64,000 bases of DNA from Phycisphaerales bacterium (GTDB taxonomy: Bacteria; Planctomycetota; Phycisphaerae; Phycisphaerales; UBA1924): assembly GCA_050485765.1 (NCBI GenBank), contig JBJHBZ010000013.1, positions 5,272 to 69,271 of the forward strand. The letters are read 5' to 3'. This document shows, in pieces, positions 7,621-52,636 of the stretch (position 1 is the stretch's first letter; each line of letters begins with the position of its first letter). A model generated the notes under the pieces. That model saw only the letters and a program-made list of their open reading frames with translations. It had not been told where the DNA came from and did not search any database. Position numbers and translations under genes: made by a program.

Positions 7621-7772
7621 GTCGCTGTCCTTTCTCGCCGCGAGCCCGGAAGCCCGATCCGGCGGGGAAAGTTGAGGAGCCGAGCCCGAAACACGCCAAC
7701 GCGGCGTGCGGGCGAAGCCCCAACGAGGGGTCCAGAGGATAGGCGGGCTCGGAGGAGGGGAAGGGAGGGAAG

Positions 7773-7959
7773 GAGCACTGACCTCTCAGAAGAGGTCAGT
7801 GGCACAAGGGGCACCAGGGGCGAGAAAACATGTGCCACTGACCTTGTCCGCAAGGTCAGTGCTCCGGGCCGCCCTCTGGACCCTCTCGATCCTCGTTGTG
7901 GGAGGGGCGGAGAGAGAGGAGCCGGGGAGCACTGACCTCTCAGAAGAGGTCAGTGGCAC
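7773..7959. repeat. REP/BIME-like cluster: three 33-nt palindromic units at 7773..7805 (+, type A), 7832..7864 (-, type B) and 7927..7959 (+, type A)
   Basis: Type A is GAGCACTGACCTCT-CAGA-AGAGGTCAGTGGCAC. Type B, read on the opposite strand, is GAGCACTGACCTTG-CGGA-CAAGGTCAGTGGCAC. Each has an 11-bp stem and a 4-nt loop. Confidence 0.9.
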
Positions 7960-7983
7960 AGGGGCTCACGCCGGGCGTAGGGA

Positions 7984-9236: not shown

Positions 9237-9278
9237 TAGTGCCTAGTGCCTAGTGCCTCGTGCCTCGTGCCTCGTGCC
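9237..9278. repeat. Heptanucleotide tandem repeat (TAGTGCC)x3 (TCGTGCC)x3
   Basis: Read directly from the sequence: six contiguous 7-nt units between the pth stop (9289) and the rpsF start (9095), preceded by a CT-rich tract at 9216..9236. Confidence 0.9.
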
Positions 9279-12720: not shown

Positions 12721-13126
12721 GAGGTCCGCCGCCGAGGGTTGCGGGTGCGTCATGCCCCGCGTGTCGGCGTTGTTCGCGTGGATCGTTCGATCGCCCGAGG
12801 CGTGTGTTGCCCGGGGATCGTGCGCTGCCTCCGTGTGCTGTGGGCCGCGCGGGTTTGAAGCCGCACGGTGCCGAACCGTCGATACCGAAGATCGCGGTCC
12901 GACGCCGACCGGGACAACCCCGGGTCCGCACGCGAAGGCCGCGGCTGAGCGAACGCCCCGTCCCGAATCGAGACGAACACGCACGCCTGGGCTGGACCCC
13001 CCTCCGCCGCTCGGAGGCAAGACCCATGCCGCGCCTCAGCCGGGAAGCTCTCGCTCCGCCGGCGTCCGTCGCGGACGGCCCAACTCGATGCCCGGAAGCA
13101 TAGCCCGCCGCTTTTCAGAAGAACAT

Positions 13127-13399
13127 GTGCCACTGACCTTGTCCGCAAGGTCAGTGCTCCAGGCCGCCCTCCTCGACCCTCGTTATGGGAGGAGCGGAGA
13201 AGCACAAGGCGGGGGAGCACTGACCTCTCAGAAGAGGTCAGTGGCACGGGGGGAGAAACACATGTGCCACTGACCTTGTCCGCAAGGTCAGTGCTCCGGG
13301 CCGCCCTCTTTGGGCTCTTTCCCGCTCGCTTCGAAGAGGAGCGTGAGAAAATGGGGAAGAGATGGGGAGCACTCACCTCTCGGAAGAGGTCAGTGGCAC
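13127..13399. repeat. REP/BIME-like cluster: four 33-nt units at 13127..13159 (-, B), 13215..13247 (+, A), 13264..13296 (-, B) and 13367..13399 (+, A, one stem mismatch)
   Basis: Same consensus as at 7773..7959. The B(-)/spacer/A(+) composite occurs twice here and once at 7832..7959, and every spacer starts C[GA]GGCCGCCCTC. Confidence 0.9.
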
Positions 13400-13427
13400 A
13401 TCGAGTCTCACACCCCGTCCATGCCCG

Positions 13428-14087: not shown

Positions 14088-14142
14088 GACGGGACGGTAT
14101 CCGGGATCGGGAGAGGAGAGGGAGGAGAGGTGGAAGACGGGG

Positions 14143-14175
14143 GAGCACTGACCTCTCGGAAGAGGTCAGTGGCAC
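14143..14175 (+). repeat. Solitary REP unit (type A, loop CGGA)
   Basis: GAGCACTGACCTCTCGGAAGAGGTCAGTGGCAC, between the MoxR gene and the hydrolase gene. Confidence 0.9.
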
Positions 14176-14198
14176 AGGAGCATCCAAAGAGGGGCGAG

Positions 14199-18213: not shown

Positions 18214-18246
18214 GAGCACTGACCTTGCGGACAAGGTCAGTGGCAC
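18214..18246 (+). repeat. Solitary REP unit (type B) between convergent genes
   Basis: GAGCACTGACCTTGCGGACAAGGTCAGTGGCAC. Confidence 0.9.
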
Positions 18247-40300: not shown

Positions 40301-40438
40301 TGGGGAAGGCACGAGAGTGCCATTAGGTTGTGTTTGACGCAGCGGTGGGACGGGCGTCTCGCCCGTCATGGAGCGTCCGAAGAGACGGGCCAGAAGCCCA
40401 TCCCGCCAAGCTTCAGAAGACGGATTCGAGCCGTCGAA
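40301..40438 (+). repeat. Family-2 structured repeat, copy A (~135 nt)
   Basis: TGGGGAAGGCA...GTGTTTGACGCAGCGGTGGGACGGGCGTCTCGCCCGTC...AGACGGGCCAGAAGCCCATC..AAGCTTCAGAAGACGGATTCGAGCCGTCGAAC. Aligns almost end to end with copy B at 41141. Confidence 0.8.
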
Positions 40439-41140: not shown

Positions 41141-41275
41141 GGGGAAGGCATTAGGCACTAGAGCCGTGTTTGACGGATCGGTGGGACGGGCGCCAGAGCC
41201 CGTCAGGAGCGTCGGTAGAGACGGGCCAGAGGCCCATCGCACCAAGCTTCTGAAGACGGATTTGCTCCGTCAAGC
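41141..41275 (+). repeat. Family-2 structured repeat, copy B
   Basis: GGGGAAGGCATTAGGCACTAGAGCCGTGTTTGACGGATCGGTGGGACGGGCGCCAGAGCCCGTC...AGACGGGCCAGAGGCCCATC..AAGCTTCTGAAGACGGATTTGCTCCGTCAAGC. The ends pair as TTGACGGA/TCCGTCAA. Confidence 0.8.
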
Positions 41276-49084: not shown

Positions 49085-50815
49085 TCAATCGCCGCCGGGC
49101 TCGGGGGTGGCGTTGGCCTCGATCGGCTCGACGTCCGCGTCGATCAGCCAGCGCTCCAGGTTCGGGCCGGTGATGCGCAGCTCGCGGACGACATGGCCCT
49201 CGGCGTCGCGGATGACGACCACGCCGCCCTCGAGCTCGATCCCGTCGTCCCACAGGTCGCGGGCCGGGCGACGCTCCCCGCCCGCGGCGATGCGCTCCAA
49301 CTCCTGCACGCGGTTGTCGACGCGCCCCAGCTCGCGCAGCACGCGCTCGCGACGGAGCAGCATCTCACGAAGCTCGTCCAGCGCGATCGCGTCGCCACCC
49401 ATGCCGGGCTGGCCCGTCGGCGTCCACTCCCCGTCGTCGATCCGCCCTTGCACCGCGAGAACGGCGGCCGAAAGCTGCGGGTCGGCGAGCTCCTCCACCA
49501 CCCACGCCGGGTCGTCCCACCGCCCGCGCTCGCTCGCCTCGGTCGCCGCGGCGTCGGTGCGGATGATCTCCTGCTGAGCCCGCTGGCGCAGCAGACGCAC
49601 CGTCTGCTCGTCGCTGAGCGGCACAAAGAAGCCCTCGGTCGGGTCGACGCCCCACTCGGTCGCCCCGGGGTTGCGGTTGAGGCTGCGCCCGCTGGGGAGG
49701 TAGTAACGCTGTGTGGTGAACTTGAGCTGCCCGCCTCCGCCGCGGGGGAGGCGCTGCAGGCTCTGCACGCTGCCCTTGCCGAAGCTGCGCGTGCCCACGA
49801 CGATCGCGCGATCGTTCTCTGACAGTGCGCCAGCGACGATCTCGCTCGCCGAGGCGCTCTGCTCGTTGATGAGCACCGTCATGGGGAAGTACGGGAGCGT
49901 GCCCTCGCGGCTCGCGCGGCGCGTCTCGGTCTCGAACGCGCGCCCGCGCGTCGAGACGATGTCCCCCTCCTCCAGGAAGAGATTCGCGATGTTGACGGCT
50001 TCTTCCAGCCCGCCGCCGGGGTTCCAGCGGAGGTCGAGGATGAGCCCCCCGAGCCCGCCGGGCTGATCGCCGCCGAGCGCGGCGATCGCCTCGCGCAGGT
50101 CGCGATCGACCCGGGGTGTGAACTGGCTGAGGCGGACGTACGCGATCCCGCGTTCGGGGTCGATGACGTGGAGCCAGCGCCCGTCGTTGGCCGGGTCGCG
50201 GTGGAAGCCGGTGACCGAAAGCGTGCGCACAGGGGCCCGCGTCAGCGTGACCTCCAGCTCGCGCCCGGCGCGTTCGATGGTGAGCGTCACCGGCGTGCCG
50301 GCCTCGCCCTGGAGCAGCTCCACGCACTCCTCGGCCGAGCGTCCCTGCGTGCTCCGCCCGTCGATCTCGATCACGCGATCATCGGGCATGAGCCCGGCCG
50401 CGAGCGCGGGCGAACCCTCCAGCGGGCTGACGATCGCGAGCCACCCGTCGCGGACGAGCACGCGGGCGCCGATGCCGACGTACTCGCCGGTCAGGCGCTT
50501 GGTGAACTCGGCGGCGCGGGCGGGGGGGACGTACTCGGTGTACGGGTCGTTGAGGACGCCGAGCATGCCGTCGATCGCGCCGCGCTGCATCGCCTCGAGG
50601 TCGACCTCGTCGACGTACATGCGGGTGATGAGGCTCTCGACATCGATGATCGGGTCGAGGAAGGCGTAGCCGTTGGCCGGGCGGAGCGCCAGAGCGAGGG
50701 TCGAGCCGAGGACGGCGACCGCGAGGATGCCCACCAGAAGGCCCTGCATCCGCGCCCCGCCAGGTCGCCCGCGCCGCGAGCCCGTGGTTGCCGCATCCCG
50801 AACCGATCGACGCAT
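49085..50815 (-). CDS. Carboxy-terminal processing protease (S41) with a PDZ domain and a long C-terminal extension
   Basis: GIGARV..., PDZ GSPALAAGLMPDDRVIEIDG, ILDLRWNPGGGL, SASASEIVAGAL, GTRSFGKGSVQ. An alternative start lies at 50749 (MQGLLV). Confidence 0.85.
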   Translation of the reverse strand: MRRSVRDAATTGSRRGRPGGARMQGLLVGILAVAVLGSTLALALRPANGYAFLDPIIDVESLITRMYVDEVDLEAMQRGAIDGMLGVLNDPYTEYVPPARAAEFTKRLTGEYVGIGARVLVRDGWLAIVSPLEGSPALAAGLMPDDRVIEIDGRSTQGRSAEECVELLQGEAGTPVTLTIERAGRELEVTLTRAPVRTLSVTGFHRDPANDGRWLHVIDPERGIAYVRLSQFTPRVDRDLREAIAALGGDQPGGLGGLILDLRWNPGGGLEEAVNIANLFLEEGDIVSTRGRAFETETRRASREGTLPYFPMTVLINEQSASASEIVAGALSENDRAIVVGTRSFGKGSVQSLQRLPRGGGGQLKFTTQRYYLPSGRSLNRNPGATEWGVDPTEGFFVPLSDEQTVRLLRQRAQQEIIRTDAAATEASERGRWDDPAWVVEELADPQLSAAVLAVQGRIDDGEWTPTGQPGMGGDAIALDELREMLLRRERVLRELGRVDNRVQELERIAAGGERRPARDLWDDGIELEGGVVVIRDAEGHVVRELRITGPNLERWLIDADVEPIEANATPEPGGD

Positions 50816-50893
50816 CGCGCACCCGTCCTTTCCCAAGCCCGTTCCTGCCCCCATCGTACGGGGTGTGGTGCCCCGCCACTCGCCCCACCTACG

Positions 50894-52357
50894 ATGTCTT
50901 TCGGGCGATCGTTCGCCTCTTGCACGGGAGAGCACTTGGGCGGATCGAGTTTCGAGCAGCAGCGTCAGGGCATCCGGGTCATCGCGGAGAAGGCGGTCGT
51001 CGCGGCCGTCCGCCTGCCGGAGGACCGTTTCGACCCCAGCGACCCGTTCGGCGAGCTGCGCGAGCTGGCCCGCCAGGCGGGGGCCGAGGTCGTCGCCGAG
51101 CTCACCCAGAACCTCGACCGCCCCGTCGCGGGCACCTACATCGGCACCGGCAAGCTCGGCGAGCTGCGCGAGCTCTGCGAGCTCACCGGCGCGACGACCG
51201 TCATCTTCGACCACGAGCTGAGCCCCAAGCAGATCGCCGGCATCGAGAAAGTCGTCGAACGCAAGATCATCGATCGCTCCGAGCTCATCCTCGACATCTT
51301 CGCCGGGCGCGCCACCACGCGCGAGGCCCAGCTCCAGGTCGAGCTCGCCCAGCTCGAGTACACCTACCCGCGCCTCCGCGCGATGTGGACCCACCTCGAA
51401 CGCGTCGCCGGCGGCTCGCCCCAGGGCGTCGGCACCCGCGGGCCGGGCGAGCAGCAGCTCGAGATCGACCGGCGACTCGTCCAACGCAAGAAAACCCAGC
51501 TCCAACGCGAGCTCAGCGAGATCCAGGGGCGCAAAGCCCGCAGCGTCCAGAAACGCAAGCTCGATCACTTCACCGTCGGGCTCGTCGGCTACACCAACGC
51601 CGGCAAGTCCACGCTCTTCAATACGCTCACCGCCGGCGGCGCCTACGCCGACGACCGCCTCTTCGCGACGCTCATGACCCGCACCCGACAGTGGGATCTC
51701 GGCGGCGGGCTCGACGTCATGCTCAGCGACACCGTCGGCTTCGTCCGCGACCTCCCCCACCACCTCGTCGCCAGCTTCCGAGCTACGCTTGAAGAAGCGA
51801 CCCACGCCGACCTGCTGCTCGTCGTGCTCGACGTCGCGGACCCGGCGGCCGAGATGCAGCTCGAAGCCGTCCACCGCACGCTCGACGAGCTTTTCGACGA
51901 ACGCGACCGGCGCGAGCCCGGAGCACACCGCCCGGAGCGCGTCCTCCTGCTCAACAAAGCAGACCGACTCGCGGACAACAGCAATCTGCTCGTCTGGCAG
52001 CAACGCGTGCCGGGGTCGATCCCGCTGTGCGCGCTCCCGAACGAGCAGGGCATGCCGCGGATCGGCGCCGAGGCGCTGCTCGCCCGCGTGACGGCCGCCG
52101 CCAAGGGCGAGCTCCGCGAACGCGAGCTCCTCGTGCCGATGCGCGACAGCAAGACGGTCGCGACGATCGAGAACCGGGCGGAGATCCTGAGCCGCGAGTA
52201 CGAGGGCGGCACCGTCCGCTTCCGCGTCCGCATCGGCGACCGCCAGCTCGCCCAGCTCCGCGCCGCGGGCGCGGAGTTGCAAGTTGTCGGCGACCCCACC
52301 GCGGGGCAGACCCCAAGAAAACGCGGCTGGCAGGCCCAGGAACACACCGCCGAGTGA
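50894..52357 (+). CDS. hflX: GTPase HflX
   Basis: IDRSELILDIFAGRATTREAQLQVELAQLEY, GTRGPGEQQLEIDRR, GYTNAGKSTLFN, DTVGF. Confidence 0.9.
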   Translation: MSFGRSFASCTGEHLGGSSFEQQRQGIRVIAEKAVVAAVRLPEDRFDPSDPFGELRELARQAGAEVVAELTQNLDRPVAGTYIGTGKLGELRELCELTGATTVIFDHELSPKQIAGIEKVVERKIIDRSELILDIFAGRATTREAQLQVELAQLEYTYPRLRAMWTHLERVAGGSPQGVGTRGPGEQQLEIDRRLVQRKKTQLQRELSEIQGRKARSVQKRKLDHFTVGLVGYTNAGKSTLFNTLTAGGAYADDRLFATLMTRTRQWDLGGGLDVMLSDTVGFVRDLPHHLVASFRATLEEATHADLLLVVLDVADPAAEMQLEAVHRTLDELFDERDRREPGAHRPERVLLLNKADRLADNSNLLVWQQRVPGSIPLCALPNEQGMPRIGAEALLARVTAAAKGELRERELLVPMRDSKTVATIENRAEILSREYEGGTVRFRVRIGDRQLAQLRAAGAELQVVGDPTAGQTPRKRGWQAQEHTAE

Positions 52358-52373
52358 TGCACAAGCTCCAACT

Positions 52374-52636
52374 GTGCCACTGACCTCTTCCGAGAGGTCA
52401 GTGCGCCCCAGCTCCAACCCCTCCCACACTCCAGCAGCCCGCACCAAAGCGCAGCATCACAAGAGCATCAAGAGAACACAAGGGCGGCCCGGAGCACTGA
52501 CCTTGCGGACAAGGTCAGTGACACATATCCGCTGAGTTCCAACCGAGCTCCGCCTGTGCCACGGACCTCTTCCGAGAGGTCAGTGCTCACAACTCACCGC
52601 CCGGAGCACTGACCTTGCAGACAAGGTCAGTGGCAC
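52374..52636. repeat. REP/BIME-like cluster: four units at 52374..52406 (-, A), 52492..52524 (+, B), 52556..52588 (-, A, one mismatch) and 52604..52636 (+, B, loop CAGA)
   Basis: Same 33-nt consensus. It fills the whole hflX-lysS convergent intergenic region. Confidence 0.9.

Follow-up and report, generated by a model that had tools for sequence, protein, structure and literature searches.

Four copies of a 33-nt hairpin, of two stem subtypes in the order B, A, B, A, lie at positions 13127-13399 of the stretch shown above, and they raise the question of what such a sequence is and how it has come to be repeated. The stretch (the window, 64,000 nucleotides in all) is C13:5272-69271 of genome G000, an assembly of 3.21 Mb in 66 contigs with 69% G+C. 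An earlier note on the window had read the hairpins as a family resembling repetitive extragenic palindromic (REP) sequences and bacterial interspersed mosaic elements (BIMEs). This reading is supported by the copy number, by the extragenic location, by a gene for a REP-associated tyrosine transposase (RAYT) that is flanked by the same hairpins, and by turnover between relatives. We consider it very probable that the hairpins are a population of REPs and REPINs (REP doublets forming hairpins) served by the single RAYT of the genome.

The hairpin family and its inverted doublets

When the window was searched with the pattern CACTGACC-N10-GGTCAGTG at no more than two mismatches, exactly the 13 sites of the earlier note were found. 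Their cores start at 7776, 7836, 7930, 13131, 13218, 13268, 13370, 14146, 18217, 52378, 52495, 52560 and 52607, i.e. at the coordinates of that note plus 3-4 nt of flank. Dinucleotide-preserving shuffles gave a chance expectation of 0.03 copies per window, and the highest number in any of 100 shuffles was one. The hairpin begins with a single-stranded 5' head (TGTGC), which is followed by a perfect stem of 11 bp closed by a loop of 4 nt, and it ends in a CTCC tail; the sizes of stem and loop had been given correctly. The loop reads YCKG on the strand on which the head comes first and CRGA on the + strand of the earlier note, and in the latter sense the consensus is (G)GAGCACTGACC TCTCRGAAGA GGTCAGTGGCACA for subtype A and (C)GGAGCACTGACC TTGCRGACAA GGTCAGTGGCACA for subtype B. 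The subtype cores are, as described before, CCTCT/AGAGG and CCTTG/CAAGG.

The motif is neither confined to the window nor an end of an insertion sequence (IS). [quoted passage not shown] For further analysis we used the 171 copies with conserved flanks. Genome-wide there are 83 A and 79 B copies, and of the approximately 170 copies 90 agree with the 33-nt element at every one of its 25 conserved (specified) positions. All 13 copies of the window are intergenic, as had been stated, with neighbours assigned by Pfam and Rfam. In the genome, where genes were called with a codon-usage-scored longest-ORF caller (ORF, open reading frame), 145 of the 171 copies are strictly intergenic, compared with 22% non-coding DNA. 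The 26 'genic' copies lie at most about 250 nt from the 5' end of over-extended ORF calls or overlap ORF edges, and one of them is spurious. The caller also picked at least one antisense ORF (window 49085-52447), thus the genic and intergenic counts are conservative. The 33-nt unit is in these respects a short (20-40 nt), high-copy, extragenic palindrome, as a REP is by definition.

The composites that the earlier note described as B(-), a spacer starting C[GA]GGCCGCCCTC and A(+) were found at 7.8 kb and 13 kb, and the same arrangement dominates the whole genome. A neighbour analysis of adjacent copies counted 31 B(-)A(+) and 26 A(-)B(+) pairs, which are one object in two orientations and make up 57 heterotypic inverted doublets; homotypic pairs were essentially absent genome-wide. 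Doublets account for about 114 of the 170 copies, and 26 copies are singletons. Written from B to A, a doublet reads 5'-TGTGC-[B stem-loop]-CTCC-spacer-GGAG-[A stem-loop]-GCACA-3', the two heads pointing outward. The spacers fall into two length classes, one of about 8 nt (14 doublets) and one of 55-87 nt (about 45 doublets). Long spacers are pyrimidine-rich, then purine-rich; they often start with GGCCGCCCT beside B, and a minority end with AGGGCGGCC beside A. Apart from the length classes and the frequent GGCCGCCCT start the spacers are poorly conserved. In tandem arrays (B A B A) the head-to-head junctions measure 13-30 nt. Folded as single strands, doublets form one long hairpin of -33 to -43.5 kcal/mol (z -5.7 to -9.2), a stability that was matched by none of 200 shuffles, and the A/B difference appears in this long hairpin as an internal loop. 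Two inverted REPs that fold together and are commoner than single copies are what is called a REPIN.

The two stem variants are, as proposed in the earlier note, linked by compensatory changes: both loop-proximal pairs are Watson-Crick in 98% of the 171 copies, and they occur in two states only, C-G/T-A (A, 86-87 copies) or T-A/G-C (B, 79 copies). A third pair, at position 4 of CACTGACC, varies as well: T-A stands in 128 copies, G-C in 20 and a T.C intermediate in 16. Stem pairs in general are standard in 97-100% of the copies, this third pair (87%) being the exception. It must be noted that these are counts of copies, not of independent events; each stem state has probably spread by copying, thus what the counts show is only that pairing-competent variants propagate.

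As a separate observation, the orientation of 56 doublets (B to A or A to B) was compared with the sign of the GC skew: the two agree for 43 of them when the skew is taken locally, at +/-5 kb (p 0.007 by contig-flip permutation), and for only 32 at the scale of contigs. Gene strand has no association with GC skew in this genome.

The RAYT gene and the head of its repeats

The earlier note had found no RAYT in the window, which we can confirm, and had suggested to look for one elsewhere. The genome has one match to the Y1-transposase models (PF01797; also NF047646), and it lies on contig C12, between hairpins of the family. The parts of this locus (L001) are:

L001 1166-1198 and 1208-1240: type B and type A hairpins on one side of the gene
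L001 1270-1812 (C12:15174-15713), minus strand: RAYT gene, 180-aa product
L001 1835-1867 and 1927-1959: type A and type B hairpins on the other side

The product reaches 96.8 bits on NF047646, the NCBIfam model 'REP-associated tyrosine transposase', where the cut-off is 80; on NF033573, the model for IS200 with a cut-off of 55, it reaches only 17 bits. It aligns to E. coli TnpA-REP (4ER8) with an E value of 2e-6 and at low identity; the aligned residues are H66-V-H68, W119-Q120, D126, R127, R130, Y141 and N145-P146 (Y141-VHE-N145-P146). Y141 aligns to Y115 of the E. coli enzyme, which we take to be the catalytic tyrosine. The reading frame is intact and carries all catalytic motifs, among them the HUH motif and the tyrosine of the Y...NP motif. 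In E. coli TnpA-REP the residues W94, Q95, E100, H101 and R104 are listed as contacting GTAG, and N119 is named besides (PMC6006769); the aligned residues of the RAYT correspond to the HUH, GTAG-contacting, Tyr and N119 positions. D and R at the positions of E100 and H101 have been reported for subclasses with typical REPs (PMC6006769). Judged by its motifs (EHVH / WQ / YVHENP) the enzyme appears to be class 2-like, with an exact fit to none of the signatures listed by Quentin et al. A single-copy RAYT gene flanked by REPs of its own family is the arrangement known as a REPtron.

REPs are defined by a conserved GT[AG]G tetranucleotide located 0-2 nt 5' of the stem (PMC6006769, PMC3733652). The earlier note was right that the GTAG head is absent, but the hairpins are not headless: GTGC stands directly 5' of the stem (TGTGC-CAC..., on the strand opposite to the + of that note) in at least 80% of the copies. 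The position is the same and the first three bases, GTG, match the definition, while the fourth is C. The same head recurs in another genus, where the hairpins flanking three RAYTs of genome G022 begin with GTGCCAC and have different stems (CACCGACCG..., CACCAGTC... and others). To survey the head more widely we collected 64 loci with RAYT homologues (37-54% identity) and full flanks from other genomes, most of which belong to Planctomycetota and some of which are metagenome-assembled genomes (MAGs) of Armatimonadota, Zixibacteria and Acidobacteriota; the survey rests on motif positions rather than on explicit hairpin calling. GTGCCAC occurred 124 times within about 250-300 nt of a RAYT homologue, 52 times in the approximately 4-fold larger remainder and 3 times inside the gene, and 41 of the 64 loci had at least one flanking copy. 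The control motif, GTGCCAC reversed but not complemented, was found 5 times near and 35 times far. From the concentration of GTGCCAC beside the RAYT homologues we conclude that GTGC together with the CAC/GTG foot of the stem is a conserved tag of this RAYT clade. We found no description of the tag in the searchable literature, which is weak negative evidence. Programs that look for REPs by requiring GT[AG]G, among them the rule set quoted in PMC6006769, would overlook families with the head GTGC(CAC).

Some hairpins of G022 share the lower stem CACTGACC/GGTCAGTG but differ in the upper stem, which occurs in two compensated variants (T-A vs C-G) side by side (C1:332644-332719, C2:126638-126714 and C3:175992-176074 of that genome; L106 560-650 and 1287-1375). 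The RAYT-flanking hairpins of G022 are heterotypic pairs as well, thus heterotypic pairing recurs across genera.

There is also a hint that the two ends of the doublet are not equivalent. Of 82 A copies, 20 have the palindrome ATCCGGAT directly beside the head, and of 79 B copies only 2, against about 0.2 expected by chance; an example at the outer flank of a type A hairpin is L001 1826-1833. Judging by this placement, ATCCGGAT may be a preferred target or a cleavage context that marks one end of the doublet. It is tempting to combine these observations into a third superfamily of REP tags (GTGC-CAC) beside GTAG and CGTC, belonging to a Planctomycetota-centred RAYT clade (the 41 loci come from many genera and also from a few other phyla), with apparently obligately heterotypic doublets whose loop-proximal pairs are compensated and whose A end preferentially abuts ATCCGGAT. 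We put this combination forward tentatively, as a possibility that we would not bet on. If it were correct, A and B would, by analogy with IS200/IS605, be functional left and right ends.

Turnover between relatives and the explanations weighed

The hairpins of the window lie at five sites, which are given below with their parts. Strands are given so that the 5'-GTGC head comes first in reading, and A(+) of the earlier note is therefore (-) here.

7773..7805, (-): type A hairpin, singleton beside the next doublet
7832..7959, (+): heterotypic doublet in the ssb/rplI gap; B 7832-7864, 62-nt spacer starting GGGCCGCCCTC, A 7927-7959; folds as one long hairpin of -43.5 kcal/mol (z -5.7)
13127..13247, (+): doublet 1 of the four-hairpin stretch; B 13127-13159, 55-nt spacer, A 13215-13247; fold -40 kcal/mol (z -5.7)
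13264..13399, (+): doublet 2 of the same stretch; B 13264-13296, 70-nt spacer, A 13367-13399 with one stem mismatch (CACTCACC); fold -42.5 kcal/mol (z -6.4)
14143..14175, (-): type A hairpin, a truncated doublet with the purine-rich half of the spacer upstream
18214..18246, (-): type B hairpin, singleton in a convergent-gene gap
52374..52524, (-): doublet in flipped genomic orientation, in a convergent gap; A 52374-52406 and B 52492-52524, separated by an 85-nt spacer that ends with AGGGCGGCC
52556..52636, (-): doublet with a short spacer of 15 nt; A 52556-52588 (the CACGGACC variant) and B 52604-52636

We compared these sites with the congener G001, in which the flanking genes are colinear and 84-91% identical. 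Its assembly is 95% complete (that of G000, 97.6%) and has 107 hairpin copies of both subtypes. The earlier note had proposed to look for insertion polymorphism among relatives, and all five sites differ:

7.8 kb: extra A at 7773, then the doublet, in the window; in G001 the shared doublet, with an element of another repeat, family-2, at the orthologous site in place of the extra A
13.1-13.4 kb: two doublets in the window; in G001 one member of the different, approximately 150-nt family-2 repeat
14.1 kb: truncated doublet in the window; in G001 a full B-spacer-A doublet
18.2 kb: B singleton in the window; no copy in G001
52.4 kb: two doublets in the window; in G001 one, 52556..52636 being conserved and 52374..52524 absent

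In the doublet common to both genomes, 7832..7959, the hairpins are 97-100% identical and the spacer has diverged (about 60%). The copy at 14143 retains one half of a spacer, and G001 has a complete doublet in its place, thus at least some singletons are truncated doublets. Strains differ as well: a contig of the soil-metagenome run X3, approximately 99% identical in the flanks, joins 13122 to 13260 and lacks one 137-nt doublet unit, whereas a contig of run X1 reads across the A-B junction that is formed when both doublets are present. Because the X3 joint falls in a 38-nt direct repeat, transposition and recombination are indistinguishable there. The difference from the window is one of whole doublets both in G001 (13 kb, 52.4 kb) and in X3, with boundaries in repeated sequence and no clean empty site. 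Matches of at least 3 nt that could be target-site duplications flank only 1-2 of 42 isolated doublets, not beyond chance. The absence of target-site duplication is expected for HUH/Y1 transposition.

In the mechanism that we propose the propagating unit would be the REPIN- or BIME-like doublet, in which a B and an A hairpin are inverted relative to each other and their heads face outward. The doublet would be non-autonomous and the single RAYT, an HUH/Y1 enzyme, would act on it in trans: it would recognise the folded hairpin and the head on single-stranded DNA, e.g. at replication forks, and cut and rejoin adjacent to the head. Doublets would in this way be copied, moved or deleted in intergenic DNA without target-site duplication. 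The stem would be kept by selection for RAYT recognition and hairpin folding, which would be why the A/B difference and the change in the third pair (T-A to G-C) are compensated. We infer the catalytic steps and the single-stranded substrate by analogy with E. coli TnpA-REP and IS200/IS605, and the hairpins might in addition be of some benefit to the host.

Several observations weigh against this explanation. The head is GTGC and the canonical GT[AG]G is not present; the bias in the orientation of the doublets is significant at the local scale only; and the support for mobilisation comes from sequence comparison. What differs between species and strains could be due to recombination or slippage between copies instead of transposition: the X3 deletion has the 38-nt direct repeat at its boundaries, and at 52.4 kb the doublet seems to have been duplicated together with about 30 nt of its flank. 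A further point comes from G001. Its only detectable RAYT is 50% identical to that of G000, is found at another locus and is flanked by family-2 repeats (L007 1286-1440 and 1998-2140), hence the link between one RAYT and one family is not demonstrated in that genome. Its 107 CACTGACC copies are nevertheless as intact as those of G000. A greater decay of the hairpins in G001, to be expected if the RAYT had been lost long ago, is ruled out by the ratio of perfect copies to copies with at most one mismatch, which is 0.56 in G001 and 0.61 in G000. At the G001 site syntenic to the RAYT of G000 there is an unrelated, approximately 800-nt low-GC insert. In G000, in turn, no second RAYT matching family-2 was found. 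It is possible that each assembly misses one RAYT, that each genome lost one recently, or that RAYTs sharing the GTGCC head cross-serve families. Both congeners have both repeat families and one of two RAYTs in the assembly, a reciprocal pattern that could mean that one RAYT serves several stem families via the shared head.

The persistence of 107 copies in G001 without the cognate RAYT in its assembly also speaks for a decaying relic, in which the RAYT is inactive and all variation comes from recombination, slippage and deletion between existing copies. The repeated sequences bounding the X3 variant and the 52.4-kb difference, and the truncated doublet at 14.1 kb, agree with such a state. However, the RAYT frame is intact with its catalytic motifs, 90 of about 170 copies are perfect, and the sites of G000 at 13 kb, 18.2 kb and 7773 are empty or otherwise occupied in G001, which requires gains as well as losses; we therefore regard the relic as unlikely. 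Nor do we think that the doublets are miniature inverted-repeat transposable elements (MITEs), that is IS deletion derivatives whose TGTGCC...GGCACA ends are recognised as terminal inverted repeats by a DDE transposase. Inverted ends, a length of 80-155 nt and dispersal would suit MITEs, which are characterised by target-site duplications in addition to the inverted repeats; such duplications are lacking here, the only gene bracketed by the repeats encodes a Y1/HUH RAYT and not a DDE enzyme, and single hairpins and alternating tandem arrays are typical of REPs and BIMEs, not of MITEs. This makes a MITE origin highly improbable.

A role in the host deserves a longer consideration. The earlier note had suggested that the hairpins may act as terminators, mRNA-stabilising elements or protein-binding sites, and one can imagine that they are primarily regulatory in one of these ways (as terminators, stabilisers of mRNA 3' ends or protein-binding sites like the BIMEs of E. 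coli) and are maintained by selection for such a role, with the RAYT a domesticated maintenance enzyme or irrelevant. The stems are perfect and GC-rich, and at shared sites the hairpins are 97-100% conserved while spacers and flanks have diverged. In addition, 37% of the placed copies are in convergent gaps, which make up 18% of the intergenic length, and E. coli REPs are known for such effects (PMC3733652). Against this, a T-run (T4 or longer within 14 nt) accompanies only 13 of the 171 copies, thus the hairpins are not intrinsic terminators and the suggested terminator role is without sequence support. Unlike fixed regulatory sites, the hairpins are freely gained and lost between congeners, even inside a ribosomal-protein operon, and convergent selection would not make 170 loci identical in sequence, for which copying is needed. 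As the primary explanation a regulatory function seems to us quite unlikely, somewhat more so than the relic; it is an addition to propagation by the RAYT more than an alternative to it.

Known systems, genomic surroundings and other repeats

It is instructive to compare the family with the REPs of E. coli. The likeness to BIMEs with alternating Y and Z REPs, which the earlier note pointed out, is borne out: in both cases two stem subtypes of an extragenic palindrome alternate in inverted orientation, and a single HUH/Y1 gene is flanked by REP pairs (TnpA-REP, the REPtron, 4ER8), with HUH, WQ and Y...NP motifs that align. The differences are the head (GTGC, not GTAG), the perfect 11-bp stems, which lack the bulge of E. 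coli REPs, and the nature of the subtypes: A and B differ by two compensated pairs, Y and Z by loop length. BIMEs also have, by definition, conserved motifs between their REPs; no recognisable L motif of the integration host factor (IHF) type was found in the doublets, the spacer having the GGCCGCCCT motif and its pyrimidine-then-purine design. The REPIN-RAYT systems of Pseudomonas (Bertels & Rainey 2011, PMC3116915; PMC3337134) share the dominance of the inverted doublet, the long hairpin, the single-copy RAYT flanked by REPINs and an intergenic population in the hundreds. They differ in that the partners here are always of different subtype, which creates the internal loop, in the two spacer classes and in the phylum, Planctomycetota. 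Heterodimers of partners differing at few stem residues have already been described, with a preference that was called unexplained (Di Nocera et al. 2013, PMC3733652). The present family, whose partners likewise differ at few stem residues, resembles those of P. aeruginosa (GTAG-24, CGTC-2/3) and is an independent further case of this preference; all families of that study have GTAG or CGTC tags, and GTGC(CAC) fits neither named superfamily.

With the IS200/IS605 elements (IS608, ISDra2) the system has in common the HUH/Y1 enzyme, subterminal hairpins at both ends, the lack of target-site duplication and an end that abuts a specific sequence, here ATCCGGAT at the A head, which is reminiscent of the target sequence that IS608-type elements retain at one end. 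Unlike in those elements, the gene for the enzyme is present once and does not form part of the repeated unit. The class 3 TnpA-Y1 proteins of Planctomycetes and Acidobacteria (Quentin et al. 2018, PMC6006769) come from the same phylum and are Y1 genes with atypical flanking hairpins, but they have a Y----Q motif (YV[VI]xEQ), W[TA] and a CnGA foot, whereas the RAYT described here has WQ and YVHENP, the class 2 or TnpA-REP-type signature, and a GTGC head. Taken as a whole, the REP/RAYT system of this genome is an ordinary one, of a kind that was to be expected, in a little-studied phylum; the GTGC-tag clade and the obligate A/B pairing are only mildly new points. What is known of REP/RAYT systems comes, to our knowledge, almost wholly from Proteobacteria. 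The present work documents a complete one, with hairpins, heterotypic doublets, single-copy RAYT and turnover, in an uncultured Phycisphaerales lineage, and it identifies the head of this RAYT clade as GTGC(CAC), not GTAG.

The genes around the window copies are of diverse kinds. The cluster at 13.1-13.4 kb has a tRNA on one side and an alpha/beta hydrolase on the other; the copy at 14143 lies between co-directional genes, the same hydrolase and a MoxR-type ATPase; and the copy at 18214 is downstream of a beta-lactamase-like gene and faces a convergent ORF. At the gathering score Rfam had three tRNA matches in the whole window, and the hairpins were matched by no family. The usual position of rpsR (ribosomal protein S18) is between ssb and rplI. 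In the window a REP cluster (7621-7983) occupies the ssb/rplI gap, and G001 has the same gene order with one doublet and a family-2 element, thus in both genomes the S18 gene must be elsewhere.

The hairpins have a practical consequence, too. Contigs of the short-read metagenome runs X1-X4 end at hairpins of the window (13152, 13263 and 14140-14177), which shows that the hairpins break short-read assemblies of such MAGs. In the same runs the summed word depth rises 30-100-fold at the hairpins.

Further repeats were noticed in the course of this work. Family-2 (GGTGCCCYGGARACG...GGAAAAGCTCCGCCGCGGCGGCTCCGCGTTTCC, about 150 nt) has 16 copies in G000 (e.g. C42:22970-23002) and 34 in G001, where the copy in L112 occupies the orthologue of the four-hairpin gap (window 13109-13420). 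A separate structured repeat of approximately 135 nt with the palindrome GACGGGCG-N-CGCCCGTC lies at 40301-40438 and 41141-41275 of the window and has 24 strict copies genome-wide. We considered whether it is the repeat that flanks the G001 RAYT, but the comparison rejected this; it is unrelated to both REP families, and the 0.7 kb between its two window copies contains no RAYT-like frame. A CRISPR array of at least 62 repeats (...CCCCTCACGGGGGCGCGGATTGAAAC) spans C38:126-4147, with 3 more repeats at a contig end (C40:32-164). Finally, (TAGTGCC)n heptamer microsatellites of 3-7 units are found at 9237-9278 of the window (= C13:14508-14528) and on contigs C3, C5, C8, C17 and C22.

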